Part shown: positions 1 through 52,528 of the stretch, piece by piece
How the letters are laid out: each line of letters begins with the position of its first letter
Position numbering within the stretch: position 1 is the stretch's first letter
Sequence record: MF158045
Source of the DNA: Shigella phage Sf22
Reading direction: 5' to 3' (one strand)
Length of the DNA: 64,000 nt
Position numbers and translations under genes: made by a program
Notes under the pieces: generated by a model
Told to the model about the DNA's origin: nothing
Database searches by the model: none
What the model saw: only the letters and a program-made list of their open reading frames with translations

Positions 1-2
1 GT

Positions 3-833
3 ACTGTAATGCCAATAAACATTAATGCTTCCGGTTTGATGAATGTTAATGGCGTTGCAACATTTGGTCGTTCAGTCACAGCCAATGGTGAATTCATTAG
101 CAAGTCTGCAAATGCTTTCAGAGCAATTAGCGGTGATTACGGATTCTTTATTCGTAATGATGCTGCTAATACCTATTTTATGCTTACTGCATCCGGTGAT
201 CAGACCGGTGGATTTAATGGATTACGTCCTTTGGCTATTAATAATGCATCTGGCCAAGTAACGATTGGTGAAGGCTTAATCATTGCCAAAGGTGCTACTA
301 TAAATTCAGGTGGTTTAACTGTTAACTCGAGAATTCGTTCTCAGGGTACTAAAGCATCTGATTTATATACCCGTGCGCCAACATCTGATACTGTAGGATT
401 CTGGTCAATCGATATTAACGATTCAGCCACTTATAACCAGTTCCCAGGTTATTTTAAAATGGTTGAAAAAACTAATGAAGTGACTGGGCTTCCATACTTA
501 GAACGTGGCGAAGAAGTTAAATCTCCTGGTACACTGACTCAGTTTGGTAACACACTTGATTCGCTTTACCAAGATTGGATTACTTATCCAACGACGCCAG
601 AAGCGCGTACCACTCGCTGGACACGTACATGGCAGAAAACCAAAAACTCTTGGTCAAGTTTTGTTCAGGTATTTGATGGAGGTAACCCTCCTCAACCATC
701 TGATATCGGTGCTTTACCATCTGATAATGCTACAATGGGGAATCTTACTATTCGTGATTTCTTACGAATTGGTAATGTTCGCATTATTCCTGACCCAGTG
801 AATAAAACGGTTAAATTTGAATGGGTTGAATAA
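3..833 (+). CDS. 34: Long tail fiber proximal subunit gp34, C-terminal fragment (5-prime end lies outside window)
   Basis: ORF open to window start with no in-frame stop upstream of the first Met; sits directly upstream of 35-36-37-38 in T4 order. Confidence 0.55.
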   Translation, partial: TVMPININASGLMNVNGVATFGRSVTANGEFISKSANAFRAISGDYGFFIRNDAANTYFMLTASGDQTGGFNGLRPLAINNASGQVTIGEGLIIAKGATINSGGLTVNSRIRSQGTKASDLYTRAPTSDTVGFWSIDINDSATYNQFPGYFKMVEKTNEVTGLPYLERGEEVKSPGTLTQFGNTLDSLYQDWITYPTTPEARTTRWTRTWQKTKNSWSSFVQVFDGGNPPQPSDIGALPSDNATMGNLTIRDFLRIGNVRIIPDPVNKTVKFEWVE

Positions 834-841
834 GAGGTATT

Positions 842-1957
842 ATGGAAAAATTTATGGCAGAGTTTGGACAAGGATATGTCCAAACGCCATTTTTATCGGA
901 AAGTAATTCAGTAAGATACAAAATAAGTATAGCGGGTTCTTGCCCGCTTTCTACAGCAGGACCATACGTTAAATTTCAGGATAATCCTGTAGGAAGTCAA
1001 ACATTTAGCGCAGGTCTTCATTTAAGAGTTTTTGACCCTTCCACCGGAGCATTAGTTGATAGTAAGTCATATGCTTTTTCGACTTCAAATGATACTACAT
1101 CAGCTGCTTTTGTTAGCTTCATGAATTCTTTGACAAATAATAGAATTGTTGCTATATTAACTAGTGGAAAGGTTAATTTTCCTCCTGAAGTAGTATCTTG
1201 GTTAAGAACCGCCGGAACGTCTGCTTTTCCATCTGATTCTATATTGTCAAGATTCGACGTATCATATGCTGCTTTTTACACTTCTTCTAAACGAGCTATT
1301 GCATTAGAACATGTTAAACTAAGTAATAGAAAAAGCACAGATGATTATCAAACTATTTTAGATGTAGTATTTGACAGTTTAGAAGATGTCGGAGCTACCG
1401 GGTTTCCAAGAAGAACGTATGAAAGCGTTGAGCAATTCATGTCAGCGGTTGGTGGAACTAATAACGAAATTGCGCGTCTACCAACTTCAGCTGCTATAAG
1501 TAAATTATCTGATTATAATTTAATTCCTGGAGATGTTCTTTATCTTAAAGCACAACTATATGCTGATGCTGATTTACTTGCTCTTGGAACTACGAATATA
1601 TCCATTCGATTTTATAATGCATCAAATGGATATATTTCCTCAACACAGGCTGAATTTACCGGGCAAGCTGGGTCATGGGAATTAAAGGAAGATTATGTAG
1701 TTGTTCCAGAAAACGCAGTAGGATTTACGATATACGCGCAGAGAACTGCTAAAGCTGGTCAAGGCGGAATGAGAAATTTAAGCTTTTCTGAAGTATCAAG
1801 AAACGGCGGTATTTCAAAACCTGCTGAATTTGGCGTCAATGGTATTCGTGTTAATTATATCTGTGAATCTGCTTCACCTCCGGATATAATGGTACTTCCT
1901 ACGCAAGCATCGTCTAAAACTGGTAAAGTGTTTGGACAAGAATTTAGAGAAGTATAA
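842..1957 (+). CDS. 35: Long tail fiber hinge connector gp35
   Basis: 371 aa (T4 gp35 about 372 aa); synteny between 34 and 36. Confidence 0.75.
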   Translation: MEKFMAEFGQGYVQTPFLSESNSVRYKISIAGSCPLSTAGPYVKFQDNPVGSQTFSAGLHLRVFDPSTGALVDSKSYAFSTSNDTTSAAFVSFMNSLTNNRIVAILTSGKVNFPPEVVSWLRTAGTSAFPSDSILSRFDVSYAAFYTSSKRAIALEHVKLSNRKSTDDYQTILDVVFDSLEDVGATGFPRRTYESVEQFMSAVGGTNNEIARLPTSAAISKLSDYNLIPGDVLYLKAQLYADADLLALGTTNISIRFYNASNGYISSTQAEFTGQAGSWELKEDYVVVPENAVGFTIYAQRTAKAGQGGMRNLSFSEVSRNGGISKPAEFGVNGIRVNYICESASPPDIMVLPTQASSKTGKVFGQEFREV

Positions 1958-1962
1958 ATTGA

Positions 1963-1986
1963 GGGAGCCTTCGGGTTCCCTTTTTC
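1963..1986 (+). terminator. Hairpin with UUCG loop plus T-run between genes 35 and 36
   Basis: GGGAGCC-TTCG-GGTTCCC followed by TTTTTC. Confidence 0.55.
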
Positions 1987-1988
1987 TA

Positions 1989-1996
1989 TATAAATA
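1989..1996 (+). promoter_or_regulatory. T4-type late promoter (TATAAATA) for gene 36
   Basis: Exact TATAAATA about 24 nt upstream of the gene 36 ATG. Confidence 0.7.
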
Positions 1997-2019
1997 CTAT
2001 TAAAATAAAGGGGCATACA

Positions 2020-2679
2020 ATGGCTGATTTAAAAGTAGGTTCAACAACTGGAGGCTCTGTCATTTGGCATCAAGGAAATTTTCCATTGAATCCAGCCGGT
2101 GACGATGTACTCTATAAATCATTTAAAATATATTCAGAATATAATAAACCACAAGCTGCTGATAACGATTTCGTTTCTAAAGCTAATGGTGGTACTTATT
2201 TAAATAAAGTAATTTTTAATAAAGGAATGACTGTTCCTGGCGCAGGGTCAGGTGACAATGGTATTTTTGCTGGTCCTGGTGATAATGCCACGTATGATAC
2301 TACAAATATGGATATTGTTTCGTGGTATGGTATTGGTTTTAAATCATCACAAGGATCAGCAGCCAGAACTGTGGTAATTAATACACGTAATGGCGATATT
2401 AGTACAAAAGGCGTTGTGTCGGCAACTGGTCAAGTAAGAAGTGATGCGGCTGCTCCTATAGCAGCGAATGACCTTACTAGAAAGGACTATGTTGATGGAG
2501 CAATAAATACTGTTACGGCAAATGCAAACTCTAGAGTGTTGCGTTCTGGCGACACTATGACAGGTAATTTAACGGCGCCAAACTTTTTCTCACAGAATCC
2601 AGCATCTCAACCTTCACATGTTCCACGATTTGACCAAATCGTGATTAAGGATTCTGTTCAAGATTTCGGCTATTATTAA
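2020..2679 (+). CDS. 36: Long tail fiber distal connector gp36
   Basis: 219 aa (T4 gp36 about 221 aa); preceded by late promoter TATAAATA; synteny. Confidence 0.8.
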   Translation: MADLKVGSTTGGSVIWHQGNFPLNPAGDDVLYKSFKIYSEYNKPQAADNDFVSKANGGTYLNKVIFNKGMTVPGAGSGDNGIFAGPGDNATYDTTNMDIVSWYGIGFKSSQGSAARTVVINTRNGDISTKGVVSATGQVRSDAAAPIAANDLTRKDYVDGAINTVTANANSRVLRSGDTMTGNLTAPNFFSQNPASQPSHVPRFDQIVIKDSVQDFGYY

Positions 2680-2687
2680 GAGGACTT

Positions 2688-5600
2688 ATGGCTACTTTAA
2701 AACAAATACAATTTAAAAGAAGCAAAACCGCAGGAGCACGTCCTGCTGCTTCAGTATTAGCCGAAGGTGAATTGGCTATAAACTTAAAAGATAGAACAAT
2801 TTTTACTAAAGATGATTCAGGAAATATCATTGATCTAGGTATTGCTAAAGGCGGTCAAATTGATGGAAATGTAACTATTGATGGAACTTTACGCGTCAAT
2901 GGACCAATAAACAACTTTGGAAATTTTTCTACAAGTGGTACTATTACGGCAAGTAATATTGTTTCTGCTACAGTATTCAGATCAACATCCGGTTCATTTT
3001 ATACAAGAGCAATAAATGATACTGCAAATGCCCATCTTTGGTTTGAAAATACGAATGGATCGGAGAGAGGGGTTTTATATTCAAAACCACAGTCTGAAAA
3101 TGAAGGCGTAATTACAATGCGCGTTCGCCAAGGAACCGCAGCAGGGGCTCAAAATTCAGAATTTCATTTCATTTCTACTGATGGCGGTATCTTCCAGGCA
3201 CGCAAATTAACTGCTTTAACTTCTATTAGTACACCAACTATTAGTGTTAATTTAATTAATCATGATTCTAAAGCCTTTGGACAATACGATTCACAATCAT
3301 TAGTTCAGTATGTTTATCCTGGAACCGGTGAAACAAATGGTGTAAACTATCTTCGTAAAGTTCGAGCTAAATCAGGTGGAACTATTTACCATGAAATTTG
3401 TACAGCTCAGACTGGGCTAGCTGATGAAGTTTCTTGGTGGACTGGTAATATACCGTTATTTAAACTATACGGTATTCGTAACGACGGTAGAATGATTATT
3501 CGCAATAGCTTGGCCATTGGTACTGTGACGGAAGGGTTTCCGTCAAGCGATTATGGAAATACTGGGGTAATGGGAGATAGGTATTTAGCTCTTGGCGATA
3601 ATGCTTCTGGACTTAAATGGGTTCGTACTGGCGTTATTGACTTAATGGCTAACGGTATTTCTGCGGCGTCTATTATTAATAATGGTATTAACAGTACTAA
3701 AAAATTAATGGTTGGTTATAGTCGAGATTCTGGTTCTACTTGGGATTTCCCAAATAACAACCAAGCAATGTTTACTGCGCGTACCGATGTTGATGGTAAT
3801 AATAACGGTGATGGTCAAACTCATATCGGTTATAGCAGTAATTCTAAAATGTATCACTATTTCCGTGGTACAGGTCGTATGTCCGTTAGTATGGGCGATG
3901 GACTTCTTGTTGAGCCTGGCATTTTAGATATTAAAACTGGTTCAAATTCATTAAATTTGCGTGCTGATGGTACTGTTGCATCTACTCAAGAAGTTAAGCT
4001 TAATAATGGGTTATTCTTTAATAGTAGTTCTTCTAACGCCGGTCTTAAATTTGGCGCTTCTTCTTCTATAAATGGAACTAAGACAATACAATGGAACGCA
4101 GGCACCCGCCCGGGTCAGAACAAAAGCTATGTGACCATGAAAGCATGGGGCAATGCATTTGAGGATAATACTAATAAAAACAGAGAAACTGTATTTGAAT
4201 TAGGCGATGGACAGGGTTGGCATTTTTATTCACAGCGCGTTGCTCCTGCAGCAGGTTCTACTGCCGGTTCTGTTGAATTTGCGATGGCCGGTAGTTTATT
4301 AACTTCTGGTTCTATTACAACAAGATCTTCCCTGAATGCTGATAATGGATTGTCTGTAAATGGACAAGCTAAATTTGGTGGAACGGCTGATGTATTAAGA
4401 ATTTGGAATGCTGAATACGGTGCTATTTTCCGTCGCTCAGAAAGTAATCTTTATATTATACCGACTCCTAAAGATGCTGGAGAATCGGGCGGTATAAGTA
4501 ATCTTAGACCATTGATAATAGAACTGAACACTGGCACAGTTAAAATGTCGCATGATGTTCATTTAGGAGATTCTGGATCTGGTACAGGACTTTTACAAGT
4601 AAGTAATAGTCTTAAAACTATTAAAATGATATGTCCAGTAACTATTAATGAACGCAATGCAGCGCTTACCCTGGATTCTCCTTCATCTTCTTCTGCTAAT
4701 TATTTACAGGGTTCTAAAGCTGGAACTAGATCATGGTACGTTGGTCTTGGCGGCGCTGGAAATGATTTATCTCTTTATAGCCAATCTTATGGACATGGTC
4801 TTGTTATAAGTGATAATTTCACGTCAATCACTAAGCCTCTTAAAGTCGGCAATGCCCAATTAGGAACTGACGGTAATATTACCAATGGTTCAGGAAACTT
4901 TGTCAACTTAAATACCACGTTAAATCGTAAAGTTAATTCTGGATTTATTACTTATGGAGCAACCTCTGGATGGTATAAGTTTGCAACAGTAACAATGCCA
5001 CAATCCACTTCGACGGTCTTCTTTAAAATAGTTGGAGGTTCTGGATTTAATAGCGGATTATTCACACAATGTAATATTGCTGAAATTGTTTTACGTACTA
5101 GTAATGAAAGACCTTCTGACTTAAATGCTGTATTATACACAAGAACAACTGGAATGTATAGCGCAGCATTTAGAAATATTGCAGTTAACAATGTCTCTGG
5201 AAATACATATGACATTTATGTTTATGCTGGAACATATTGTAATCAACTAGTTTGTGAATGGTCATGTACCGAAAATGCTACTGTTAGCGTTATTGGTATT
5301 AACTCATCTACCCAATCACCTGTGGATGCTCTTCCAGATACAGCAGTTGATGGGCAAGTTGCTAATGTTCTTAATAACTTGGTTGATCGTGGTAAAGTTA
5401 AGCGTTATGAAGCCGATTCTGAAATAGCTATTAATAGCCAAACCGGTATTCGTATCAGAAGCAATGCCGATAAAACTGGTTCTGTGGCTACAATGTTACG
5501 AAATGACGGTGGCAGTTTTTATATTCTGTTTACAGATAAAAATGCCACTGATGGCGCAGCAACTGTTAATGGTGATTGGAATAGTAAACGTCCTTTCGCA

Positions 5601-6377
5601 ATTAACTTAACAACCGGCGAAGTGATGATGAATAACGGCATAGCTGTTCGCAGCGCTGCTTTATTCTATAATAGCATAAACGTCAAAGATAATGGTTCTA
5701 TTAACTTTGATAAGTCCGGCGCTAACCCGAGAAACATGCGTATATTCCATGCAGGTGATGGCACTCGTGGTAATCGCATTGAAATTGCTGATGAAACAAA
5801 CTATATTGCTTACTTCCAAAAATTACCTGGTGGTCAAAATCAGGTTTCATTCAATAGTGCTACACTTTCTGGATTAACACAGTGTAATCAATTTGGTGTT
5901 AACACAACAAACGCACTTGGTGGAAACAGTATAACATTTGGTGATACTGATACTGGTATTAAGCAAAATGGCGATGGATTATTAGACATATATGCGAACA
6001 ACGTGCAAGTGTTCCGTTTCCAAAATGGTGATTTGTACTCATATAAAAATATAAATGCTCCAAACGTTTATATTCGTTCTGATATTCGTTTAAAATCTAA
6101 CTTCAAACCTATCGAAAATGCACTTGATAAAGTTGAAAAACTCAATGGTGTCATTTATGATAAAGCTGAATACATCGGTGGAGAGGCAATTGAAACTGAA
6201 GCGGGTATTGTAGCTCAAACGTTACAAGACGTTTTACCAGAAGCCGTCCGTGAAACAGAAGACAGCAAGGGTAATAAAATACTCACTGTTTCTTCTCAAG
6301 CCCAGATTGCTCTTCTGGTTGAAGCTGTGAAAACGCTTTCTTCTCGTGTAAAAGAACTTGAATCTAAACTTATGTAA
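2688..6377 (+). CDS. 37: Long tail fiber distal subunit gp37 (T2-type, with C-terminal chaperone-like segment)
   Basis: 1229 aa, Gly/Ser/Asn/Thr-rich fibrous composition; follows gp36; longer than T4 gp37 (1026 aa) as in T2-type fibers. Confidence 0.9.
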   Translation: MATLKQIQFKRSKTAGARPAASVLAEGELAINLKDRTIFTKDDSGNIIDLGIAKGGQIDGNVTIDGTLRVNGPINNFGNFSTSGTITASNIVSATVFRSTSGSFYTRAINDTANAHLWFENTNGSERGVLYSKPQSENEGVITMRVRQGTAAGAQNSEFHFISTDGGIFQARKLTALTSISTPTISVNLINHDSKAFGQYDSQSLVQYVYPGTGETNGVNYLRKVRAKSGGTIYHEICTAQTGLADEVSWWTGNIPLFKLYGIRNDGRMIIRNSLAIGTVTEGFPSSDYGNTGVMGDRYLALGDNASGLKWVRTGVIDLMANGISAASIINNGINSTKKLMVGYSRDSGSTWDFPNNNQAMFTARTDVDGNNNGDGQTHIGYSSNSKMYHYFRGTGRMSVSMGDGLLVEPGILDIKTGSNSLNLRADGTVASTQEVKLNNGLFFNSSSSNAGLKFGASSSINGTKTIQWNAGTRPGQNKSYVTMKAWGNAFEDNTNKNRETVFELGDGQGWHFYSQRVAPAAGSTAGSVEFAMAGSLLTSGSITTRSSLNADNGLSVNGQAKFGGTADVLRIWNAEYGAIFRRSESNLYIIPTPKDAGESGGISNLRPLIIELNTGTVKMSHDVHLGDSGSGTGLLQVSNSLKTIKMICPVTINERNAALTLDSPSSSSANYLQGSKAGTRSWYVGLGGAGNDLSLYSQSYGHGLVISDNFTSITKPLKVGNAQLGTDGNITNGSGNFVNLNTTLNRKVNSGFITYGATSGWYKFATVTMPQSTSTVFFKIVGGSGFNSGLFTQCNIAEIVLRTSNERPSDLNAVLYTRTTGMYSAAFRNIAVNNVSGNTYDIYVYAGTYCNQLVCEWSCTENATVSVIGINSSTQSPVDALPDTAVDGQVANVLNNLVDRGKVKRYEADSEIAINSQTGIRIRSNADKTGSVATMLRNDGGSFYILFTDKNATDGAATVNGDWNSKRPFAINLTTGEVMMNNGIAVRSAALFYNSINVKDNGSINFDKSGANPRNMRIFHAGDGTRGNRIEIADETNYIAYFQKLPGGQNQVSFNSATLSGLTQCNQFGVNTTNALGGNSITFGDTDTGIKQNGDGLLDIYANNVQVFRFQNGDLYSYKNINAPNVYIRSDIRLKSNFKPIENALDKVEKLNGVIYDKAEYIGGEAIETEAGIVAQTLQDVLPEAVRETEDSKGNKILTVSSQAQIALLVEAVKTLSSRVKELESKLM

Positions 6378-6379
6378 AA

Positions 6380-6407
6380 GAGGGCTTCGGCCCTCTAAGG
6401 ATTTTTA
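6380..6407 (+). terminator. Hairpin with UUCG loop between genes 37 and 38
   Basis: AGAGGGC-TTCG-GCCCTCT then T-rich run; may act as attenuator or RNA stability element. Confidence 0.5.
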
Positions 6408-7202
6408 ATGGCAATTGTAGGTGTTCCTGGCTGGATTGGTGAATCTGCCGTGAATGAAACTGGACAGCGTTGGATGGATGCTGCGATGAGAGCAGTTCGT
6501 GTTTCAGTTCCTGGTTGGATGAGCTCAATGGCTGGGCAATCTAAAGAAGTATATTATAGCATTGGTGCTAGCAATTCTTACAATAAAGACACACTAATAA
6601 ATTATCTCAAATCTCAAGGTAGTACTCCTGTTGTTGTTACTATTACTGGTAACCTAGTTTCTTCATCTGCAAGGCAACCTTGCTTAGATTTTCCTAGCTC
6701 ATTAACTAATGCTTATGTAACGCTTATTATAAATGGCGGTGTAACAGTATATGGTCGCGGAGGACGCGGCGCGCAAGCGGGAAACCAGGCGGGTGAAGCT
6801 GGTGGTACTGCAATTAACAATGGTATAGGTACTCGTCTACGAATCACTAACAATGGAGCAATCGCTGGCGGTGGTGGTGGTGGCGGCGCCCAATCAACTG
6901 ATAATGGATGGGGAGGTAAATATGTTTCTGGCGGCGGCGGCGGACGTCCTTTCGGAGCTGGTGGTAATAATGGAGCAAAAGCTCCGGGTGCATCAGCATC
7001 TTTAACATCTCCAGGCGCAGGTGGAAAAATGTATTCCGGCGTTGGATACTACGGTGGTGACGGTGGTAATGTTGGTGAACGAGGTAAGGATGCGGTTAGA
7101 TTGAACGGCTATTCGAACTCACCTGGCGCAGCAGGTAAAGCTGTTACTGGTAACGCACCAACATGGACTAAGGTTGGTACAATATATGGTTCAAGAGTAT
7201 AA
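6408..7202 (+). CDS. 38: Receptor-recognising tail fiber adhesin gp38 (T2-type, glycine-rich motifs)
   Basis: 264 aa with several poly-Gly blocks (GGGGGGGAQ, GGGGG) separated by variable segments; immediately downstream of gp37. Confidence 0.85.
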   Translation: MAIVGVPGWIGESAVNETGQRWMDAAMRAVRVSVPGWMSSMAGQSKEVYYSIGASNSYNKDTLINYLKSQGSTPVVVTITGNLVSSSARQPCLDFPSSLTNAYVTLIINGGVTVYGRGGRGAQAGNQAGEAGGTAINNGIGTRLRITNNGAIAGGGGGGGAQSTDNGWGGKYVSGGGGGRPFGAGGNNGAKAPGASASLTSPGAGGKMYSGVGYYGGDGGNVGERGKDAVRLNGYSNSPGAAGKAVTGNAPTWTKVGTIYGSRV

Positions 7203-7208
7203 TTTTTG

Positions 7209-7216
7209 AATAAATA
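7209..7216 (+). promoter_or_regulatory. Possible late-promoter-like box (AATAAATA) upstream of t
   Basis: One mismatch to TATAAATA, about 19 nt before the t ATG. Confidence 0.3.
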
Positions 7217-7234
7217 TCCTTAAAAGGAGGGTCT

Positions 7235-7891
7235 ATGGCAGCACCTAGAATATCATTTTCGCCCTCTGATATTCTATTTGGTGTTCTAGATCGCTTGTTC
7301 AAAGATAACGCTACCGGGAAAGTTCTTGCTTCCCGGGTAGCTGTCGTAATTCTTTTATTTATGATGGCGATTGTTTGGTATAGGGGAGATAGTTTCTTTG
7401 AGTACTATAAGCAATCAAAGTATGAAACATACAGTGAAATTATTGAAAAGGAAAGAAATGCACGCTTTGAATCTGTCGCCCTGGAACAACTCCAGATAGT
7501 TCATATATCATCTGAGGCAGACTTTAGTGCGGTGTATTCTTTCCGCCCTAAAAACTTAAACTATTTTGTTGATATTATAGCATACGAAGGAAGATTACCT
7601 TCAACAATAACTGAAAAATCACTTGGAGGATATCCTGTTGATAAAACTATGGATGAATATACAGTTCATTTAAATGGACGTCATTATTATTCTGACTCAA
7701 AATTTGCTTTTTTACCAACTAAAAAGCCTACTCCCGAAATAAACTACATGTACAGTTGTCCATATTTTAATTTGGATAATATCTATGCTGGAACGATAAC
7801 AATGTACTGGTATAGAAATGATCATATAAGTAATGACCGCCTTGAATCAATATGTGCCCAGGCGGCCAGAATATTAGGAAGGGCTAAATAA
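7235..7891 (+). CDS. t: Holin T (lysis, lysis-inhibition sensor)
   Basis: 218 aa; N-terminus MAAPRISFSPSDILFGVLDRLFKDNATGKV and one N-proximal TMD match T4 holin as I recall it; strong SD AAGGAGG. Confidence 0.95.
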   Translation: MAAPRISFSPSDILFGVLDRLFKDNATGKVLASRVAVVILLFMMAIVWYRGDSFFEYYKQSKYETYSEIIEKERNARFESVALEQLQIVHISSEADFSAVYSFRPKNLNYFVDIIAYEGRLPSTITEKSLGGYPVDKTMDEYTVHLNGRHYYSDSKFAFLPTKKPTPEINYMYSCPYFNLDNIYAGTITMYWYRNDHISNDRLESICAQAARILGRAK

Positions 7892-8164
7892 TTATTTGTT
7901 CGTATACATCTCTAGATATCGATATACACCCTCAAAACCCTCGTTGAATTCGTCGATGAGGGTTTTCTTATCTTCTTGAGTTAATTCAGAAACAATTTTA
8001 CGGAATGAATTCTGATTTAATTTTCTACCTTCATGCGTTACTCCAATCTCATTCAGAAATGCAATAAAATTAGCACGATTCTCAACAATATCTTCTCTGG
8101 AAAATTTAATCAAAATAGACGCAACAGTAATAATTTCACGAACTGTATCAATGTTTTTATTCAT
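7892..8164 (-). CDS. asiA: Anti-sigma70 factor AsiA
   Basis: 90 aa, MNKNIDTVREIITVASILIKFSREDIVENRANFIAF matches T4 AsiA as recalled. Confidence 0.95.
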   Translation of the reverse strand: MNKNIDTVREIITVASILIKFSREDIVENRANFIAFLNEIGVTHEGRKLNQNSFRKIVSELTQEDKKTLIDEFNEGFEGVYRYLEMYTNK

Positions 8165-10744: not shown

Positions 10745-10894
10745 ATTACTGCATGACTGTGATAACTGTCATGATAACACGTTGAATTCCGAACGCAAGA
10801 AGACCTCCTGCTACGGCTGGAACAACGCCTAAACCCGCCAGTAAAATGCTACCAGATACTAATGCCGCGCTTGTAATACCTATGAATGGACTCA
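10745..10894 (-). CDS. Small hydrophobic membrane peptide (50 aa), translationally coupled to gene 52
   Basis: Manual translation MSPFIGITSAALVSGSILLAGLGVVPAVAGGLLAFGIQRVIMTVITVMQ; ATG overlaps gene 52 stop (ATGA). Confidence 0.5.
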
Positions 10895-12220
10895 TTTGAT
10901 TTCCTCTAAATCTTTGGTGTATTCTGTAACTACATCAGTAGTTTTCCAATATTCGTTTTCTTCTTTTTTAGCTTTAGCTTCTTCTGCAAGTTTCTTTGCT
11001 TCGTCGGAAGTCATATGAAAAATATTCATTCCGACTAGTTTATCAACATAAGAAGAATACATCTCAATTTTAGAAAGTTCTTCAGTCAGTTCTTTACGAG
11101 TTTTACCCTGTACAACAATTTCACCTGAAATTACTTTCTTAATGAAATGTGCCTTGGCAAAGGCTAAACGAAATGCTGATTCAGTTTCTTTAATTTTGTT
11201 ATCAATTCGTTTTTGGACATAAGTTTTACGAACTTCAACAAAGTCTTTAATTAAATCAACTACGTTATCGTAAACTTGTAGCTTTCCTTTCTCATTAATG
11301 ACTGTAATATTTTGGGAACGACGCTCAATCAACCCGAAGTCTTTCATAATTTTTGCATGGCGTTCTTCTTCGTTATCGCTCAAAGAATATTCTTTACGGA
11401 ATTTAACTTTGAATCCAAACCCGTGCTCACCGCAAGCATCATCCCATGTAATGAAGCCTTTATCTTCAAGCGGGTCTAAGATTTTACTCACATAAGTTTC
11501 ACGATCATACTTATACGGAATCTCGGTGATATGCATTTGAGTTCGTGAAGTAAACTTATATGTTCCACGAATTTCATATTGCCCATCAATTTCAACGACT
11601 TCACCACGAAATTCTGGGAATTCTACCTTCGGTTTAGTTACTTTCTTTCCTTGAAGAGCTTGCAGTACAGCTTTCTTAACAGAAGAAACACTATGAGGAA
11701 GAATGTAAGTTGCATAACCAGTTGCAATACCGGAAACACCATTAAGAAGAACAGTAGGAATAATAGGCAAATAGAAAGCAGGCGGAATGTGTTCTTTATC
11801 TTGATGTACCGGAGCATATTCAGTATCTTTATATACGTTATAGAAATTTTTACTTACACGAGCAAAAATATAACGACTTGCCGCTGCCTTTTGGACAGTA
11901 CGAGAACCAAAGTTTCCTTGACCATCTAACAGAGGAAAGTTATTATTCCAAGTATTAGCCATCAAAGCACCTGCATCTTGTGCAGAGTTTTCGCCATGGT
12001 GATATCCAAGGTCCGCTACACCGCCTGCAATAGAAGCGAGTTTGTGAAACTTATCTTTATTTCCTCGTGCCAAATCAAGAGCTCGAGCAATAACAAATCG
12101 TTGAACTGGCTTAAATCCGTCAATCATATTTGGGATAGCACGATTTTCAACCGTGTACATAGCATAAGCCAGTGCTTCATTATCAATGATACTTTTTAAA
12201 TCGCGATTATTCAGTTGCAT
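10892..12220 (-). CDS. 52: DNA topoisomerase II medium subunit gp52
   Basis: 442 aa (T4 gp52 442 aa); GyrA/ParC-like N-terminus (GFKPVQRFVI). Confidence 0.95.
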   Translation of the reverse strand: MQLNNRDLKSIIDNEALAYAMYTVENRAIPNMIDGFKPVQRFVIARALDLARGNKDKFHKLASIAGGVADLGYHHGENSAQDAGALMANTWNNNFPLLDGQGNFGSRTVQKAAASRYIFARVSKNFYNVYKDTEYAPVHQDKEHIPPAFYLPIIPTVLLNGVSGIATGYATYILPHSVSSVKKAVLQALQGKKVTKPKVEFPEFRGEVVEIDGQYEIRGTYKFTSRTQMHITEIPYKYDRETYVSKILDPLEDKGFITWDDACGEHGFGFKVKFRKEYSLSDNEEERHAKIMKDFGLIERRSQNITVINEKGKLQVYDNVVDLIKDFVEVRKTYVQKRIDNKIKETESAFRLAFAKAHFIKKVISGEIVVQGKTRKELTEELSKIEMYSSYVDKLVGMNIFHMTSDEAKKLAEEAKAKKEENEYWKTTDVVTEYTKDLEEIK

Positions 12221-16309: not shown

Positions 16310-18487
16310 TTAGGCCGCAAGGGCCTTCATAGTTTTGGCGATTTGGGAAACTTCATCATCACTTAAAGAGTTGCGATATCCGATGAAGTCGGAAACAATA
16401 CGGAATTTCTTGGTAAACTCAGCAACCATTTTATCACTATTTTTTGAAGCATTACGTGATAATTCATCAAAAAGATTAGTTACCGTCCAGATGTCATGAC
16501 CGATGGTATCTTTTCCACCATTAAAATATACACCACGCAATGAACTAACTATATTAGCGAGTCGTGTATATTCTTCAGAAACTTCATCTGTACTGAAGTA
16601 CTTCATCATAAAATCTAGTTCAGGATACTTGATAATTTTATCAATATATCGTTGAGCTGAACTTGAATAACCTACGTACTTATCATAATCTACATCATCA
16701 AAAGCATCTACATATAAATCACGCAAAGCTTCAAAAATACATTGGCACTGACCGAGTTCTTTTACCTTTTTCTGTAAAAGCGGACGAATAACATAAAATT
16801 CATTAATGCCAATAAGATTAGCCATACGAATCAAAATATTCATAGATGGATGACAAAGAGATGTAGTACCATCCATAGAGAAAATATCAGAACGATGCAT
16901 ATACGCTACATACCCAGTAATTTCATCTGCTTCTGATGTGAGCGTAAATAATTCCTCTTTTTCCCAGCGCCCGTCTTTAATTTCAAACTTAAATGCTGTA
17001 GCAGCTTTAGGACGAGGAGCTTTACTTTTAACTATCTTTGGAATATAGCTTTTAACTAAAGCTTCAATTTCTGACAAATAATGAATGTTAACTTCATCAC
17101 TTTCAAACATCGCCATAATATCAGGAAGCAAATCAATCTGCGATTCTACTTCTGGATTAATAAACAGAAGGCGTTCGTTGTGATGAATATTCAAAGTGTT
17201 ATTAAATTCACTATCATCTAGCGCATGTGCTAATCCACGGACAATATTAACACGATTTTTAATATTATCAATAACGATATTAATTTTTGTTGTATTAATA
17301 CCAAACAGACGATAACTTGACGCAACGGCTGATGTTTCATGACTTTGCTTAATGCGTTTCAGTCGAGGGTCAAGATTTACTTCATACACAACTCCTGCAT
17401 TGCATAACTTACTGTCAGGTTCAAACATGCTCTGCATCTTTTTATATGACAGATTTTTAGTCGTGAATTTGACTGAATTACTAATCATATAATCTCGAGC
17501 AGAATACCCCATCTTCATTAATTCGCGATATGCGTGACGAGGAGATGTAGATTCTTTAAATCGTTTTACATCTTCATTAAATGCTTTCTCACTGAGTTCT
17601 TTAACTCGTTCAATGATATTTTTACGAGTGCGATCATCTAGTGAAAGAGCCTCGCGAGATGGAGCAATATCAAGTGAACCCATTGGAAACTTAATGTAAT
17701 TCACTTCATTGCGAATGCTTAGCCAGTTACGGTCTCTAATAACACCATCGATAGGATAAACAATACCGCCATAGATAGCATATAATCCACCACGATCAGG
17801 CCAGTATCTTTCTGGATTTACACCATAATAATCATCAAAATCAGGAAAATAATCAATTTCGCGGTCAAGACCATTAATGATAGCCAAATCTTTGAACGGT
17901 CGCATGATATAAGAAACTTCATAAGCAAAGTTTCTAAAGTCTTTTTCTTCAACTGGAACTACGATTTCAATACCAGTTTTATCATCTGGACCCATTTCTT
18001 TTACGAATGTAGGTTTAATCTGTGGGCCATCACCATCCATGTAAGCTACATAACCACGAATTTCACCTTTATGATACGAAGTAATACTAAACGTATCAGT
18101 ATAACTAAACGGAGATTTAGAACCTAAACCAAATCCGCCAATAAAGTCATTAGATTCAGCCTTAGATGAACTGAAGTATGAATTATACAGCCCAGGAGAA
18201 TTATCATCACCCTGAATATCAAAATCACTCATACCCGGACCAAAATCTCGACAAACAAATCGTGGATCTAATCGTCCTGGAACTTGAATGATAAATTTTT
18301 CAGGATTTCCATTAAGTGCATGAGCATCAATCATGTTAGTAATCAATTCACGGACTACTGCGCGAATCTTGTTTGTATACAAATCAGATGACAGAATTTT
18401 AAATACTTTAGGATTTGCTGCGATGCTAAATGCTTTTGATTTAGAACCATTGCCAAGAATTGTTTCTTTTTCAGTGGTGATAATCAT
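16310..18487 (-). CDS. rIIA: rIIA protein
   Basis: 725 aa (T4 rIIA 725 aa); ATPase-like N-terminal region; synteny. Confidence 0.9.
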
Positions 18488-18497
18488 AATTTCCTCA

Positions 18498-18701
18498 TTA
18501 ATTCATATTACGTTTAATAACTTCAGCAACTTCTAGTAGTTCATCTTTAGTTGCGGTGTCGGATTGAATTTTATCTCTAATATCTTTAAAGCGGTTTTTA
18601 AATTCTTCGGCTTCTCCCATATCGAAAAAGCGTTGAATGATTCTATATTCTCGATGAACTGCTTTATCAAAAAGTTCTAAATTTACTCTATATGATTTCA
18701 T
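18498..18701 (-). CDS. rIIA.1-like small protein (67 aa)
   Basis: ORF track; strong consensus early promoter upstream. Confidence 0.6.
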
Positions 18702-18727
18702 TTCAATATCCTCATTTGCCCAATTAA

Positions 18728-18756
18728 TTATACCACATCCTTGTGGTAAAGTAAAC
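18728..18756 (-). promoter_or_regulatory. T4-type early promoter upstream of rIIA.1
   Basis: Minus strand GTTTAC, 17 nt, TGgTATAAT (perfect extended -10). Confidence 0.75.
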
Positions 18757-20576
18757 TACTGGCTCATCCATTCTTTACGAAGGTCAGCATTATCTCCCAT
18801 GAGCATTTCAAAAAGCTCTTTCCAATTCTCAGGAAGTTTAACAACATCATATACTGGATTTTGAATCATCTCACGATATTCAGATTTTTCCAAAGAGCCA
18901 AGTCCCTTAATATAACGGATGCTATGTTTAGGTAGAGCATCTTTGGCACTCTCATATTCAGCGACTGTATAAAACCATTCTTGTTTTTTACCGACCTGAG
19001 CGATGATTACAGGAGTTTTGACAAAGCGAATTCGTCCTTGCTCAAACAATTCTGGCCAATTACTAAAAAATCCGAGCAGAGAAGGATAAATGCTTCCTAA
19101 ACCATCATGGTCAGCATCAGTCATAATAGCAATATTATGATAATTCAAGTTTTCAGCTTTTTCACCGAGAACTAGACCAGTGATTGCGCAAATATCAAAT
19201 AATTCTTTGTTTTTAAGCATATCTGCATAAGACATACCCCAACTGTTGAGAACTTTACCACGCAATGGATAACCACCGTGAAGTTCTTTATCACGAACAT
19301 CAATAAGATATCCGATAGCCGAATCACCCTCAGTCAAGAAAAGAGTAGTATCAGCATCTTTACCGCAAAGATTCGCTTTGATATGTTTATGAACTTTAGC
19401 TTTAGAAGCCTTTTTAGCTGCTTTAGTTTCAGCTGCTTTTTCTGCTGCCAATTTACGGGCCAAGGCAGCTTCAATAATCGGCATTAAAATTGCTTCATTA
19501 TTTAGAATAGCGCGTGAAATCTTTTTAGCATCAAGCTGAATATGACTACGAATTTCGCCAAATGGAGAAGTCAAACGCTCTTTAGTTTGAGAATCAAATC
19601 GCATGTTTTTCATATCACGGACAAACATAACGATAGTCAAACATTCTTTGACACGTGCTTTAGTTACATCAATTTTGAACTTACGTTTGATTTGTGGAAT
19701 AAGGTCTTCACAAATATCATCCATAACACAGTCAATGTGATGGCCACCATTCTTAGTGTGAATGTTATTCACATAAGTTAATTGGCGAAATCCATCCGGT
19801 GAACGACCAACCGCAATAGAACAATTTTCTTGTTCTTGAACAATAGCATGTTCATCATACTGTCGTGCATATTTCTTAAAATTGCCCTGAACCTTTTTAC
19901 CATTAAAGGTAAATTGAATATCAGGATAAACTACTGCAAGTGTCTGGAGACGATCCAGTGTAATGTCAAGATAAACTTGGGACAGCTCATTAGTTTCAAA
20001 TGACATAAAATCTGGAATGAAAGTAACACGAGTTCCTTTCCATTTTCCAGGAATAGTTTCCCAGGATTTATTTTCCATGCCATTTGAACAACGAACTACA
20101 ATATTATTTTGACCATCGCCAGTTTCACCGACAAACATCACAGAAAAAATGTTAGTTAAACTAGAACCAACACCATTCATACCACCGGTGACACGTTCTT
20201 TATCATCACCAAAGTTACCACCCGCTTTTGGAATAGTCCAAGCAGCAACTGGACCAGGAATTTCTTCACCGGTAGGTGTTTTAACCATCGCTTGTGGAAT
20301 ACCACGACCGTTATCTTCAACTGTTACTTGATTGTTTTTGATAGTAACATTAATTTTATTTGCGAATTTAAACTTAGTACGAATACCTTCATCTACTGAG
20401 TTATCGATAATTTCATCAATAAGCTTAACAAGACCAGGTACATACTGAACACTTTCCCATTTACCAAACAGAAAGCGCTCATGCATTTCATTAGCAGAAG
20501 AGCCAATATACATGCCGCTACGCTTTTTGATATGTTCAATATCGCTCAGAATTTTAATTTCATTCTTAATCATCAC
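18756..20576 (-). CDS. 39: DNA topoisomerase II large (ATPase) subunit, uninterrupted gp39/gp60 equivalent
   Basis: 606 aa, GHKL ATPase plus Toprim-like regions in one frame; T4 splits this into gp39 and gp60. Confidence 0.9.
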   Translation of the reverse strand: MMIKNEIKILSDIEHIKKRSGMYIGSSANEMHERFLFGKWESVQYVPGLVKLIDEIIDNSVDEGIRTKFKFANKINVTIKNNQVTVEDNGRGIPQAMVKTPTGEEIPGPVAAWTIPKAGGNFGDDKERVTGGMNGVGSSLTNIFSVMFVGETGDGQNNIVVRCSNGMENKSWETIPGKWKGTRVTFIPDFMSFETNELSQVYLDITLDRLQTLAVVYPDIQFTFNGKKVQGNFKKYARQYDEHAIVQEQENCSIAVGRSPDGFRQLTYVNNIHTKNGGHHIDCVMDDICEDLIPQIKRKFKIDVTKARVKECLTIVMFVRDMKNMRFDSQTKERLTSPFGEIRSHIQLDAKKISRAILNNEAILMPIIEAALARKLAAEKAAETKAAKKASKAKVHKHIKANLCGKDADTTLFLTEGDSAIGYLIDVRDKELHGGYPLRGKVLNSWGMSYADMLKNKELFDICAITGLVLGEKAENLNYHNIAIMTDADHDGLGSIYPSLLGFFSNWPELFEQGRIRFVKTPVIIAQVGKKQEWFYTVAEYESAKDALPKHSIRYIKGLGSLEKSEYREMIQNPVYDVVKLPENWKELFEMLMGDNADLRKEWMSQ

Positions 20577-20600
20577 TTATCCTCGTTTGGTTTCGGGAAT

Positions 20601-20625
20601 ATTATACTCCGGTAATCATAAAGCT
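20601..20625 (-). promoter_or_regulatory. Possible middle/early promoter upstream of gene 39
   Basis: Minus strand imperfect MotA box AGCTTTA, 12 nt, TATAAT. Confidence 0.35.
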
Positions 20626-20641
20626 AAAGGCCCGAAGGCCT
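20622..20641 (-). terminator. UUCG-loop hairpin downstream of lipoprotein ORF, upstream of gene 39
   Basis: AAAGGCC-TTCG-GGCCTTT (minus-strand reading). Confidence 0.45.
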
Positions 20642-20642
20642 T

Positions 20643-20912
20643 TTATTTAAAACGAATAGTTGAATCCTTAAAGAACAGCCCAGAACATACTGTTCCTTCT
20701 ACTTTCTGCCCAGTAGGTCCAACAGCACGAAATCCAGTATGTTGGAAATCATTTTCAGAGCAACCAAACCAATTATATCCAGTGATTTCAATATTAGTAA
20801 AACCGCTTGATGACAAAATTTTGGTTGCATTATCAGCATCAGTACATCCTGCTAAAGACACTGCTAATACTAATGCTGCGATAGAACGATTAATATATTT
20901 CATAATTTTCAC
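20643..20912 (-). CDS. Putative lipoprotein (89 aa)
   Basis: Signal peptide with lipobox LAGC (AALVLAVSLAGCTD). Confidence 0.55.
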   Translation of the reverse strand: MKIMKYINRSIAALVLAVSLAGCTDADNATKILSSSGFTNIEITGYNWFGCSENDFQHTGFRAVGPTGQKVEGTVCSGLFFKDSTIRFK

Positions 20913-21280
20913 TTAAATTTAATGGCTTGAAGAAGACTAATAATTCTCAAGCGACTTCTTTCATCTTTAACTGTAAAAGAAAGAGGGTCACCAGATTTCA
21001 TAGTAATAGTACATTCAAAATCAAAATCTTCGGAAACTTCTTTGAAGAAGTCAAATTCTTCATCATAAATTAGAACATTACTCTGACAACTATGAAGAAT
21101 TTTTCCATCATTTCCGGATGCTGTACTAATCATTGTAACATTATGACCTTTCATATCTTCAACGATAAATTCGCTTGTAGATATTACAGCATTAATAGAA
21201 CCATTCCTATAAATAGCAGACATTAGATATTTCTTTTCTTCGCCTTTGCGAATACGATACTTCTTACCGATTTTAAACAT
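20909..21280 (-). CDS. Hypothetical protein (123 aa)
   Basis: ORF track. Confidence 0.5.
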   Translation of the reverse strand: MFKIGKKYRIRKGEEKKYLMSAIYRNGSINAVISTSEFIVEDMKGHNVTMISTASGNDGKILHSCQSNVLIYDEEFDFFKEVSEDFDFECTITMKSGDPLSFTVKDERSRLRIISLLQAIKFK

Positions 21281-31827: not shown

Positions 31828-32037
31828 TTAAATTACATGATTATTTATAATAAATTCTCGCGGAACGTTAAAATACCCGATTTTAGTTAATATAACAACA
31901 TCACCGTTAATAATTACCGGAGAATAATCTTCTGGAGCATTAAATTTCCAATGGGCTCTAATATTATATCCATCAGAACCAAATGCTCGAGTAGCCGGTC
32001 TCCCGGCTTTTTGCCACGCGTAGAAATCAAATTTCAT
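31828..32037 (-). CDS. Hypothetical protein (69 aa)
   Basis: ORF track. Confidence 0.45.
   Translation of the reverse strand: MKFDFYAWQKAGRPATRAFGSDGYNIRAHWKFNAPEDYSPVIINGDVVILTKIGYFNVPREFIINNHVI
31842..31849 (-). promoter_or_regulatory. T4-type late promoter (TATAAATA) for soc
   Basis: Exact TATAAATA on minus strand about 30 nt upstream of the soc ATG. Confidence 0.7.
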
Positions 32038-32228
32038 TTTGAATGCTCTATAATTAATTTTAAAGCTTCTTCACTGACAAAAATTTCGTCAGGACCTTCT
32101 ATAACTTCAACCATACGAAGTTGATTAGTTAAGAGCTCACATACGAGCTCCTTGTTATAATCTTTAAATAGCTGGTCAATACGTTTCTTGTGGGCTTTCT
32201 TAAGCTGGCGTTTATTTAAACGAGCCAT
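32034..32228 (-). CDS. Hypothetical protein (64 aa)
   Basis: ORF track; stop/start overlaps on both sides. Confidence 0.45.
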   Translation of the reverse strand: MARLNKRQLKKAHKKRIDQLFKDYNKELVCELLTNQLRMVEVIEGPDEIFVSEEALKLIIEHSK

Positions 32229-32746
32229 TAATAACCTCGGTCTTGACGAGCGAAGTTTTCAGCATTTTTCAGATAATAAAGTTTAAAGATTTCTTCAGCC
32301 GTAAGACCGAGACCTTGGAACATGTTCAGAACGAAATGAAGAATATCAATCATTTCGAATTTAATTTCCAACTGGTCTTGTGGAGACAAATCAGTAATTA
32401 AAGTTTCACGACGTTCACCATGTTGAGCTTTCCAAGGCTTCCATACAGCAGATGCATCTTTTTCGCCATTGCTCATACCACCAAGAGAAGTCAATAGTTC
32501 GCGGAATTCATCATCAATATAATCTTTCTGATTACGCAGCCAATCAACAACTTCACCCGCAGTAGCCAAATCATCAGGATGACGGTTATATTCAGGTTTA
32601 TCTTTAGCTAAACGAACCTGAAGAGATTTCTGCATATCAAGCATAACTTGCAGCGGGTCTTTTTCATCACCGAGAATATCCCAGTATTCATTTTGAGCTT
32701 TATCAGCGCCTTCAATCAGTTGTGAACATTCATTAAAGTATGCCAT
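32228..32746 (-). CDS. 56: dCTP pyrophosphatase gp56 (MazG-like)
   Basis: Internal start MAYFNECSQLIEG gives 172 aa (T4 gp56 171 aa); the ORF-track 5-prime extension is unlikely. Confidence 0.8.
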   Translation of the reverse strand: MAYFNECSQLIEGADKAQNEYWDILGDEKDPLQVMLDMQKSLQVRLAKDKPEYNRHPDDLATAGEVVDWLRNQKDYIDDEFRELLTSLGGMSNGEKDASAVWKPWKAQHGERRETLITDLSPQDQLEIKFEMIDILHFVLNMFQGLGLTAEEIFKLYYLKNAENFARQDRGY

Positions 32747-32817
32747 TATTTTTCCTTTCAATTCATGGGTTAGTAGATTAATTATACAATAAATATATAA
32801 AGCAATAAGGAGGACAT

Positions 32818-37849: not shown

Positions 37850-39005
37850 TTAACTGCTCGAGGTCAGTTTCTAAATCAGCTGCTGATTTACTTTTACTTT
37901 CTGGAGATTTAAATTTTTCAACCTTTGAGTTAATCAATTCATCAACTTCCGCTTCAACAATTTCATTACTATCAATAGCACCTAACTGATAAGCACGCTT
38001 AATAGCATCTCGGAATGGTTGATGCTTAAATAAAGGACCCCAGAATGTAGTGCAGTTAGTATCTTTTGCACGCCAAGATTTTTCTTCGCGAATCATCTCG
38101 CCAGTTTCTTCGTCAAGAAATTCACGCGCATACCAACCATTTTTAGGTTTTACTACAAATCCTAATTCTAGAGCCATATCTAACAATCCAGAATAAGGAT
38201 CGATACCACCGTCAAATTTAACATCAATAAAGAATTTACTTTTTTCTTTAACGGTACGAGATTTTTCTACATTTAGAACAAATTGATACCCCTGAAGATC
38301 AGAACCATCTTTAATCTGACGCTTACCGATAATGAATACAGTATCAGCCGAATACATTACGCCTGTACCACCTGTCATCACGGTTTTACTAAACATTTCA
38401 ATTGTTTCAATTGTATGGTTAACCGCAACACATGGAATATTTTTAATGCTAAAATAAGGAGTAACAATACGGAATAATGACTTCAGTGATTTAGCACGAG
38501 TCATATCTGCCACAGATTTTTCATTCAAGGCATCTTCAGTTTCTTTCTTAGAAGCCATATTACCGATTGAGTCGATGAATACAATAACTTTTTCACCGCG
38601 CTCAATAGCTTCAAGCTGATTCACCATATCAATTTTCAGCTGTTCAACTGACTGGATTGGCGTATGAATTACTCGTTCCGGGTCAACTCCCATGGATCGC
38701 AAATAAGCTGGAGTAATACCAAATTCGCTATCATAGAATAGACAAACCGCGTCAGGATATTTGTTCAAATACGCCGCAACCATAGTCAAAGACATATTTG
38801 ATTTAAAGTGTTTAGAAGGACCTGCAAAAATAGTTAAACCAGACTGCATGCCGCCATCAATCGCACCAGAAATAGCAATATTAAGCATTGGGATTTTTGT
38901 ACGGATTACATCCTTTTCATTAAAGAATTTAGATGTAGTCAGTTCAGCAGTCATTTTAGAAGTGGAAGCTTTAATCAAACGGGATTTTAAATCTGCAATA
39001 GACAT
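37824..39005 (-). CDS. uvsX: Recombinase UvsX (RecA-like)
   Basis: 393 aa; RecA-fold nucleotide-binding loop (GPSKHFKS); synteny. Confidence 0.95.
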   Translation of the reverse strand: MSIADLKSRLIKASTSKMTAELTTSKFFNEKDVIRTKIPMLNIAISGAIDGGMQSGLTIFAGPSKHFKSNMSLTMVAAYLNKYPDAVCLFYDSEFGITPAYLRSMGVDPERVIHTPIQSVEQLKIDMVNQLEAIERGEKVIVFIDSIGNMASKKETEDALNEKSVADMTRAKSLKSLFRIVTPYFSIKNIPCVAVNHTIETIEMFSKTVMTGGTGVMYSADTVFIIGKRQIKDGSDLQGYQFVLNVEKSRTVKEKSKFFIDVKFDGGIDPYSGLLDMALELGFVVKPKNGWYAREFLDEETGEMIREEKSWRAKDTNCTTFWGPLFKHQPFRDAIKRAYQLGAIDSNEIVEAEVDELINSKVEKFKSPESKSKSAADLETDLEQLSDMEEFNE

Positions 39006-39082
39006 TCATTTTTTCCATAGGCATCATTATATTTTCCTCACTGGTTAAAGATAGAGTAATTATAACACAATAAATTTAGGCA

Positions 39083-39931
39083 TTAATCAACTGCTATTGG
39101 ATGAATAGCATTAAACTTATGAAATGCTTCTGATTTTTCTTTACGCGAAACACACATGCGAAGAACCTTTAATGGCTCGTCTTCTTCACCCAACGATTTT
39201 CGTTTTTCAATATTAGAAGTTTTCCAACGAGCTTGCTCTGGAAACTCTCTATTGATTTGCTCAAGCGCTCTATTATGTTTAGAATTACTACGAATTGAAC
39301 TGCACCCGCCAGGAGCTTGTGCTTTTCCAGATACAACCAGATATTTGAACAAGGCCAAATGCGGATAACCTTGATTAATTAAATTGAGAAATGCATACAT
39401 ATCTTCGCACAAATCAATTTTTCCATACCCAATTTGTTCTGTCGTAAGTTTTCCGAGGTCATACCATGTATTCGTGAATCCATATGAATTTTCACGATAA
39501 TTACCCCAAGATGAAGTAATTTTAAAAATAGGTAGACGAGCATGGCCATGATAATACCCACAATCCATGGCATCCTCAACATATTGAATCAATTCATAGA
39601 ACTGTTCACGGGTTAATTGATTGACTTTATCTACACAACGACGGTCATCTCTTTTTCGCATTGAACTCATACGAATAGTAGTATCATCGTCAATCATCCA
39701 GATTCGTTGACCTGTATACATATCAGTAATTGCTTTACGAGTACCGGCAATTCCGTTTACATCATCAGGAATAGTTATAATTTTAGCTCTAGACCCATAA
39801 GCGTCATGATAAGCTTTTTCTTCATGTTCACGCACTACAATATGGGGTTCATAATCAGTCGGAAACATATTAAGGGCAGAAACTGCCCCTACACGCTGAT
39901 AACTTGGAATTACGAATTGAATCATTTCCAC
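39083..39931 (-). CDS. Putative glycosyltransferase at the beta-gt locus (candidate beta-glucosyl-HMC alpha-glucosyltransferase of T2/T6 type)
   Basis: 282 aa; DxD-like motif IWMIDDDTTI; occupies the uvsX-42 interval but does not resemble T4 beta-gt (351 aa). Confidence 0.5.
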   Translation of the reverse strand: MEMIQFVIPSYQRVGAVSALNMFPTDYEPHIVVREHEEKAYHDAYGSRAKIITIPDDVNGIAGTRKAITDMYTGQRIWMIDDDTTIRMSSMRKRDDRRCVDKVNQLTREQFYELIQYVEDAMDCGYYHGHARLPIFKITSSWGNYRENSYGFTNTWYDLGKLTTEQIGYGKIDLCEDMYAFLNLINQGYPHLALFKYLVVSGKAQAPGGCSSIRSNSKHNRALEQINREFPEQARWKTSNIEKRKSLGEEDEPLKVLRMCVSRKEKSEAFHKFNAIHPIAVD

Positions 39932-40662
39932 TCACCGTTATAATCTTTTTTCACAATATGAGTTTCGCCAGTATTCCACCAATGATCAACCAAGTAAAAA
40001 TGACGAGAATATACATGAAGACTTCCAACATTCCATATAATAGAACCCGCTTTATACTGACGAGTTGAATCGCCTGCATTCAAATCAGATACTAATTTAT
40101 CTAATACGTATTTTTGCCATGCATAATCATTACGGAATCCGAAGACCACGTCATTTGAGCGCATGCTTACTACTGCATTGACTTTCTTATCACGAATCAG
40201 GTACTGTACTGTATTAGTACACATGAAATCTGACATACCATCTTTATTGTAGTCAAATTGCATGGATGGACGAGTATAAATCATGATACCACGTCGAGAA
40301 TCAGGATTTTGACCAAGTTCAGCTAAACACATATCATACTGGGCATAGTTATCTTCTGACCAAATAGCCCAACCATAGTTCGAGTTAATTTCGCCTTTAG
40401 AAGATGCTACTTGTTGCCAAATCTTCGGTGTTTCACCTGGAATATCTTTAACAAACAAGCTCTTAGATTTATACCATTCAAGTTCACGCTGAATGTATTC
40501 ATCATTAAGAGCGCCAAAAATAAAGGGTTCATCTGCTACAAATGATGCGCCAATAATTTCAATAGTTTTAACGCCAGTTTTATCAACTACGAAATCTTTT
40601 TCTTTTAATGCAAGCCCCAAATGAAGACGGATTTCTTCAACTGTCATAGAGTCACTAATCAT
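39922..40662 (-). CDS. 42: dCMP hydroxymethylase gp42
   Basis: 246 aa (T4 gp42 246 aa); synteny. Confidence 0.9.
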   Translation of the reverse strand: MISDSMTVEEIRLHLGLALKEKDFVVDKTGVKTIEIIGASFVADEPFIFGALNDEYIQRELEWYKSKSLFVKDIPGETPKIWQQVASSKGEINSNYGWAIWSEDNYAQYDMCLAELGQNPDSRRGIMIYTRPSMQFDYNKDGMSDFMCTNTVQYLIRDKKVNAVVSMRSNDVVFGFRNDYAWQKYVLDKLVSDLNAGDSTRQYKAGSIIWNVGSLHVYSRHFYLVDHWWNTGETHIVKKDYNGEWK

Positions 40663-52504: not shown

Positions 52505-52528
52505 TTAATATCCTCTTTGTTTTGGTTT

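Follow-up and report, generated by a model that had tools for sequence, protein, structure and literature searches.

Gene 39 of Shigella phage Sf22, an uninterrupted topoisomerase large-subunit gene at the site where T4 carries the MobA element

The gene 39 locus and its product

The 64-kb stretch of phage DNA analysed here, called the window below, carries on its minus strand the gene for the large subunit of a type IIA topoisomerase (Table 1). In the list of open reading frames, the frame lies at exactly 18756..20576 and counts 606 codons from a GTG. Its translation contains one stop only, the terminal one, and at the base composition of the window a run of 606 codons free of stops would arise by chance with a probability of about 1.5e-21. 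The earlier note had described a single uninterrupted frame here and its coordinates are exact, the strand being the one element that it lacked; neither a premature stop nor a frameshift breaks the frame. The length of 606 amino acids which it gave holds as a codon count from the GTG, but most likely not for the product. Codon 2 of the frame is an ATG at 20573. Because the GAGGA motif lies 6 nt from this ATG and the homologues in T4, T2 and T6 are annotated from MIKNEIK, translation most likely starts at the ATG and yields 605 residues.

Table 1. Positions of the features discussed, in window coordinates
Feature	Position	Strand	Remarks
Gene 52 (gp52), GyrA-like DNA breakage-reunion subunit	10892..12220	minus	442 aa; phrog_551, E=5.4e-221
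Gene 39, large (GyrB-like) subunit of phage type IIA topoisomerase	18756..20573	minus	605 aa plus TAG stop
64-nt segment replaced in T4	19092..19155	minus	From the third base of codon 473 through codon 494; blastn breakpoints
Site matching the 50-nt bypass insertion of T4	19100..19101	minus	Between Gly491 (GGT) and Leu492 (TTA); uninterrupted
TOPRIM acidic cluster D486-A-D488-H-D490, metal binding	19104..19118	minus	Motif position
Glu415 (EGDSA), partner of the acidic cluster	19329..19331	minus	Motif position
In-frame GTG, taken as codon 1 in the earlier note	20574..20576	minus	Probably not the initiation codon
GAGGA, Shine-Dalgarno / ribosome-binding site	20584..20580	minus	6 nt to ATG, 3 nt to GTG
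TATAAT	20606..20601	minus	Read by eye
TAGCTTTA, resembling a MotA box	20626..20619	minus	Read by eye; 12-nt spacer to TATAAT
GGCCTTCGGGCC tetraloop hairpin with T-rich tail	20640..20617	minus	Read by eye; immediately after 39.1
39.1 homologue	20643-20912	minus	89 aa
ORF between 39.1 and 39.2	20909-21280	minus	123 aa; phrog_622
beta-glucosyl-HMC-alpha-glucosyltransferase	39083-39931	minus	phrog_842, E=9.7e-89
Sites of five other T4 homing-endonuclease elements	31850-32264; 38994-39939; ~52496-52519; ~56995-57015; 58291-58294

Upstream of the gene, TAGCTTTA and TATAAT with their spacer form an arrangement which, from the T4 middle-promoter consensus, we take to be a putative MotA-dependent middle promoter for gene 39. 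It is overlapped by the hairpin and its T-rich tail, presumably a terminator. A generic scan for sigma-70 promoters and terminators over 18400..21000 returned 6 sites, compared with 9.2 in shuffled sequence, and did not report this TATAAT.

The neighbourhood is that of the T-even phages, with rIIB, rIIA and rIIA.1 downstream and 39.1, 39.2, goF and cef upstream; the flanking genes are the same in T4, and the T6 order rIIA - rIIA.1 - 39 - 39.1 is that of the window. Two of the small upstream frames deserve a remark of their own. The 39.1 homologue has a lipoprotein-like N-terminus (…AVSLAGC…), and its counterpart is annotated with 65 aa in the T4 reference as opposed to 261 nt (86 aa) in T4T and T6. 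The ORF between 39.1 and 39.2 shows weak similarity to goF-type families and has no T4 counterpart (a 372-nt window-specific gap), while T6 has an ORF of the same length at the same position, annotated as similar to RB69ORF005c.

Over its whole length (residues 1-605), the protein matches phrog_543, 'DNA topoisomerase II large subunit', in PHROGs (E=1.6e-295). Pfam recognizes a GHKL (Bergerat-fold) ATPase domain (PF02518 HATPase_c, scoring 38.4 bits where the cut-off is 26.4), a transducer domain (PF00204 DNA_gyraseB, 51.1 against 27) and PF16898 TOPRIM_C (30.7 against 29). The ATPase motifs EIIDNS (54-59), DNGRG (87-91) and GGMNGVG (130-136) are intact, as are the QTK loop lysine motif of the transducer (329-331) and the motifs EGDSA (415-419), PLRGK (436-440) and DADHD (486-490). 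The Pfam Toprim model itself gave no match at E<=0.001 in this protein, and the TOPRIM assignment is made on the basis of the motifs, the TOPRIM_C match and the identity to the T6 structure. In that structure the metal pocket is formed by E415/D486/D488 (PMC11461880). Both halves of the metal site, E415 on one side and D486/D488/D490 on the other, are present on one chain here, in contrast to T4, where they sit on separate polypeptides.

A search of the PDB gave a full-length match (1-605) to T6 gp39 (8ylu_C) and a match in two stretches to an engineered T4 gp39-gp60 fusion (8yo3_C). The window also encodes gp52, which matches the 'DNA topoisomerase medium subunit' of PDB 8yo3_A/8ylu_A over its full length (E=5e-297). 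Among the features of a type IIA B-type subunit, a GHKL ATPase, a transducer, the TOPRIM residues on one chain and an A-type partner in the same genome were found.

The T4 insertion point and the MobA element

The earlier note had proposed that one frame encodes what T4 divides between gp39 and gp60, and protein alignment bears this out. Residues 1-473 correspond to T4 gp39 1-473 with 98.3% identity, and residues 472-605 to T4 gp60 27-160 with 95.5% identity. Residue by residue, about 477-605 are the counterpart of gp60 32-160, and the C-terminal part is clearly related to gp60. Alignment with the two T4 proteins and with gp39 of T2, T6 and RB69 locates the insertion point after Ala473. At the DNA level, blastn pairs window 20905..19156 with T4 5661..3911, and window 19091..18400 with T4 2793..2102. 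Between these blocks, 64 nt of the window (19155..19092) face 1117 nt in T4 (3910..2794); the homology stops after Ala473 and high identity returns at codon 495.

The 1117 nt in T4 contain the coding sequence for the C-terminal tail of gp39, mobA and the coding sequence for the N-terminal tail of gp60, together with a recoded version of the replaced segment and the 50-nt bypass. T4 gp39 has a 43-aa tail past Ala473, and gene 60 opens with a 30-aa head that is unique to it; then come the recoded copy of N477-G491, the 50-nt coding gap and L-G-S. The 64 nt of the window, which hold the MobA homing/nick region, are of the parental type and not the recoded copy (homR): the window is one base off T2 over the segment, at codon 492, and 80% identical in nucleotides to T4 homR. 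The mobA gene is a pseudogene in the T4 reference and intact (272 aa) in T4T.

This arrangement has been described in detail. The MobA element of about 1.1 kb removes a 64-nt region and gives the first ORF a C-terminal extension (CTE), and the second ORF an N-terminal extension (NTE) together with the bypass cassette; in the T4 clade, 9 further nt are recoded beyond the bypass, and genomes without the element are termed 'parental' Topo2L alleles (bioRxiv 10.1101/2022.08.31.505936). A 2010 review, comparing T4 with related phages, likewise attributes the splitting of its large-subunit gene to the mobA insertion (PMC2988022). The breakpoints in the window agree with the published 64-nt deletion.

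No trace of the element was found in the window, in keeping with the earlier note, which had reported neither a bypass element nor a mobA-type endonuclease. With intact MobA from T4T (272 aa) as query, the best tblastn match in the 64 kb had E=3.1 over 32 aa, away from gene 39; the T4 gp39 CTE and gp60 NTE gave nothing better than E=0.7 over the same span. The 50-nt bypass element had no significant blastn-short match in the 64 kb, the longest match inside the gene being 8 nt. The bypass site reads GAT GGT TTA GGA AGC in the window, uninterrupted, as against GAT GGA (TAGCCTTCGGGCTATC...ATTATTGGA) TTA GGT in T4. Neither a UAG nor a take-off hairpin is present at this site in the window, nor do matched GGA codons for take-off and landing occur there. 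In the multiple alignment, a gap of 71 columns in the window, T2, T6 and RB69 stands opposite the T4 tails. An Rfam scan at gathering thresholds returned no hits in the window or in a T4 1-8000 control, Rfam having no model of the gene 60 bypass.

The T4 alignment brought up one further difference, unrelated to the insertion. Codons 326-328 of gp39 read L-I-R in the T4 reference (NC_000866) but F-D-S in the window (19596-19588) and in T4T. These codons adjoin the QTK loop, and the DNA of the T4 reference has a one-base deletion there with a compensating one-base insertion, most likely an old sequencing error.

As cited in the same preprint from its ref. 19, T2 acquires a copy of the cassette through intact MobA in mixed infection, and the bypass shields the invaded genome from further nicking (bioRxiv 10.1101/2022.08.31.505936). 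The site in the window is predicted to be a natural homing target of MobA, one that would be nicked and converted in mixed infection, because it is nearly identical to T2 over the target, with a single different base in the 64 nt and two over codons 466-500. The two changes are synonymous (CTC in the window for CTT in T2 at codon 469, TTA for CTA at codon 492), and that at codon 492, where T6 also has CTA, directly adjoins the bypass insertion point. These differences could formally still affect recognition by MobA. That TTA at codon 492 alters recognition and that, in addition, the lack of all six T4 homing-endonuclease elements over 50 kb marks a lineage that resists or purges such elements, as opposed to one that never met them, is, taken as a joint reading, very improbable.

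Relatives and the ancestry of the uninterrupted state

To judge from its sequence, the source of the window is a T2/T6-like Tequatrovirus. The protein is identical to the topoisomerase large subunits of at least four sequenced phages, all Tequatroviruses. Gp39 of T6 (AXN58044.1) has 605 aa, is collinear and is identical at 604 of 605 positions, the exception being Q526H, and the genes differ at 50 of 1818 nt, in changes that are synonymous or nearly so; gp39 of T2 (PV648363.1), also 605 aa, differs by F70L and T173D only (603/605, 99.7%). RB69, of the genus Mosigvirus, has one uninterrupted gene for a protein of 606 aa with 481 of 604 positions identical (about 20% divergence), and the alignment runs on without a gap where T4 has its insertion; several RB-type phages carry the annotation 'gp60plus39'. 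Over this locus, the DNA is 98.5% identical to that of phage MLF4.

The uninterrupted form is also the common one in databases. A direct search with the T4 insert found it in 43 phage records, and the locus is matched at 90% DNA identity or more by about 499 records, both counts including duplicate RefSeq/GenBank entries. The uninterrupted gene would thus be present in roughly nine tenths of Tequatrovirus records. We rejected, as a count of uninterrupted genes, the 518 of 537 records having the locus in one place, since the matching joined pieces separated by as much as about 1800 nt and T4-type records are possibly included. Among 50 evenly sampled rows of the 2208 phage homologue records, 46 gave a full match in a single piece. 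The four exceptions are PEC04 and S16, of the MobA type, a Campylobacter phage with the N-terminal part only, and CT01, which presents another oddity.

Shigella phage CT01 (OK018184.1) was considered as a near-identical allele bearing MobA and rejected, its gene being duplicated over 398 nt around foreign DNA. The insert (1817-2462, 646 nt, 45% GC) is flanked by the 398-nt direct duplication of the gene 39 homologue. One of its frames reads MTQTFIPGKDAALEDSIARFQQKLSDLGFQIEE and looks like host-derived coding sequence; the insert could be a chimera of the assembly or else a genuine insertion of host DNA.

Such a record raises the question of whether a continuous ORF might itself be an artefact of assembly or annotation, or a pseudogene, hiding a split or inactive gene. 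For the window this is extremely improbable: identical 605-aa proteins occur in independent phage records, 497 of the 537 matching records are at least 90% identical in DNA, all catalytic motifs are intact and an ORF of this length has a chance expectation of about 1e-21.

We conclude that 18756..20573 is almost certainly the intact single-chain gene 39 of a T2/T6-like Tequatrovirus, a parental allele without the MobA element; in T4 and a minority of its relatives, the element has replaced the 64 nt and given rise to genes 39 and 60. The earlier note had called the locus ancestral and uninvaded, and this polarity is upheld because the outgroups are contiguous (T2, T6, RB69, most of the 2208 phage homologues, and the cellular and eukaryotic enzymes) and the insert is mobile, a homing-endonuclease cassette. 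The word ancestral is, on the sequence, strictly assertable for the 64-nt segment only and not for the whole lineage. The segment must itself derive from uninvaded DNA, since insertion of the element removes it and leaves no more than a recoded version in its place.

A secondary re-fusion, in which the lineage once carried the element and later excised the endonuclease and the bypass, has a precedent, as such 'hit and run' events have been reported for a clade of Aeromonas phages (bioRxiv 10.1101/2022.08.31.505936). The Aeromonas ORFs, however, keep residues derived from the CTE and NTE, whereas the protein of the window shows no similarity to these tails and no residue in excess of T2, T6 and RB69, and its DNA retains the parental 64 nt and not the recoded T4 copy. 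With a gap-free alignment to T2, T6 and RB69 and no tail-derived residues, re-fusion is effectively refuted and has next to no probability.

The parental allele could also have been restored: an ancestor may have had the cassette, and homologous recombination with a naive phage in the same cell would then have removed it. Tequatroviruses are mosaic, no record being identical to the window over 25 kb and the best match (about 96%) coming in 5 pieces, and MobA insertions have been argued to be recent, with loss balancing spread (bioRxiv 10.1101/2022.08.31.505936). Such an event would be traceless, and nothing in the window speaks positively for it. Moreover, all six homing-endonuclease elements that T4 has over the corresponding 50 kb, that of mobA among them, are missing from the window: the proteins of segF, segA, mobB, mobC and the nrdD group I intron with I-TevII have no tblastn match at E<=1e-3 there. 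The absence of the five others makes a never-colonised lineage the simpler explanation, and we regard restoration as quite unlikely.

Other differences from T4 were noted in the same span. At the position of segF, the window has two small ORFs with PHROG matches to head or virion proteins. The dam methyltransferase gene, between genes 56 and 61 in T4 (16846-17625), is absent at window 32787-32806, where the flanking homologies lie 20 nt apart. A search of the 64-kb window found no homologue of Dam; the gene could have its place in another part of the genome. In place of the T4 beta-glucosyltransferase stands a beta-glucosyl-HMC-alpha-glucosyltransferase, and alpha-gt is kept with 91% identity to T4, a combination which we take to be the T2/T6-type set of DNA glucosylation genes.

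A predicted two-subunit enzyme among known topoisomerases

An uninterrupted gene 39 is already known and is the normal state for most T4 relatives; T2 and T6 provide the reference for this form, with solved structures for the latter. The present locus has little importance beyond its correct annotation and adds one more naive target for MobA. As the genome also lacks the other homing endonucleases of T4 in this region, it offers a comparison point for the population genetics of homing elements.

Gp39 of the window is inferred to act with gp52 as an ATP-dependent strand-passage enzyme. Given 99.8% identity to the T6 protein, which has been characterised in structure and activity, the two would pair into a gp39(2)gp52(2) heterotetramer that binds and bends the G-segment and cleaves it through the gp52 tyrosine, with the Mg2+ for cleavage held by gp39 E415/D486/D488; ATP would then drive passage of the T-segment and lead to relaxation. 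To our knowledge, the phage enzyme relaxes DNA and does not supercoil it.

The closest known system is the T6 enzyme, the gp39 of which is represented in PDB entries 8YLU, 8YO1, 8YO5, 8YO7, 8YOD and 8YON. The enzymes of T2 and T6 consist of two subunits (gp39 and gp52) and that of T4 of three; in the T4 enzyme, the tails project from the TOPRIM domain as a pendant that changes activity little (2024 cryo-EM study, PMC11461880). Beyond phages, cellular GyrB and ParE and the N-terminal half of eukaryotic Topo II share the domain order GHKL ATPase, transducer and TOPRIM. Although distant in sequence, human Topo II alpha and beta align continuously to residues 10-603 (E about 1e-59) and ParE to residues 6-603.
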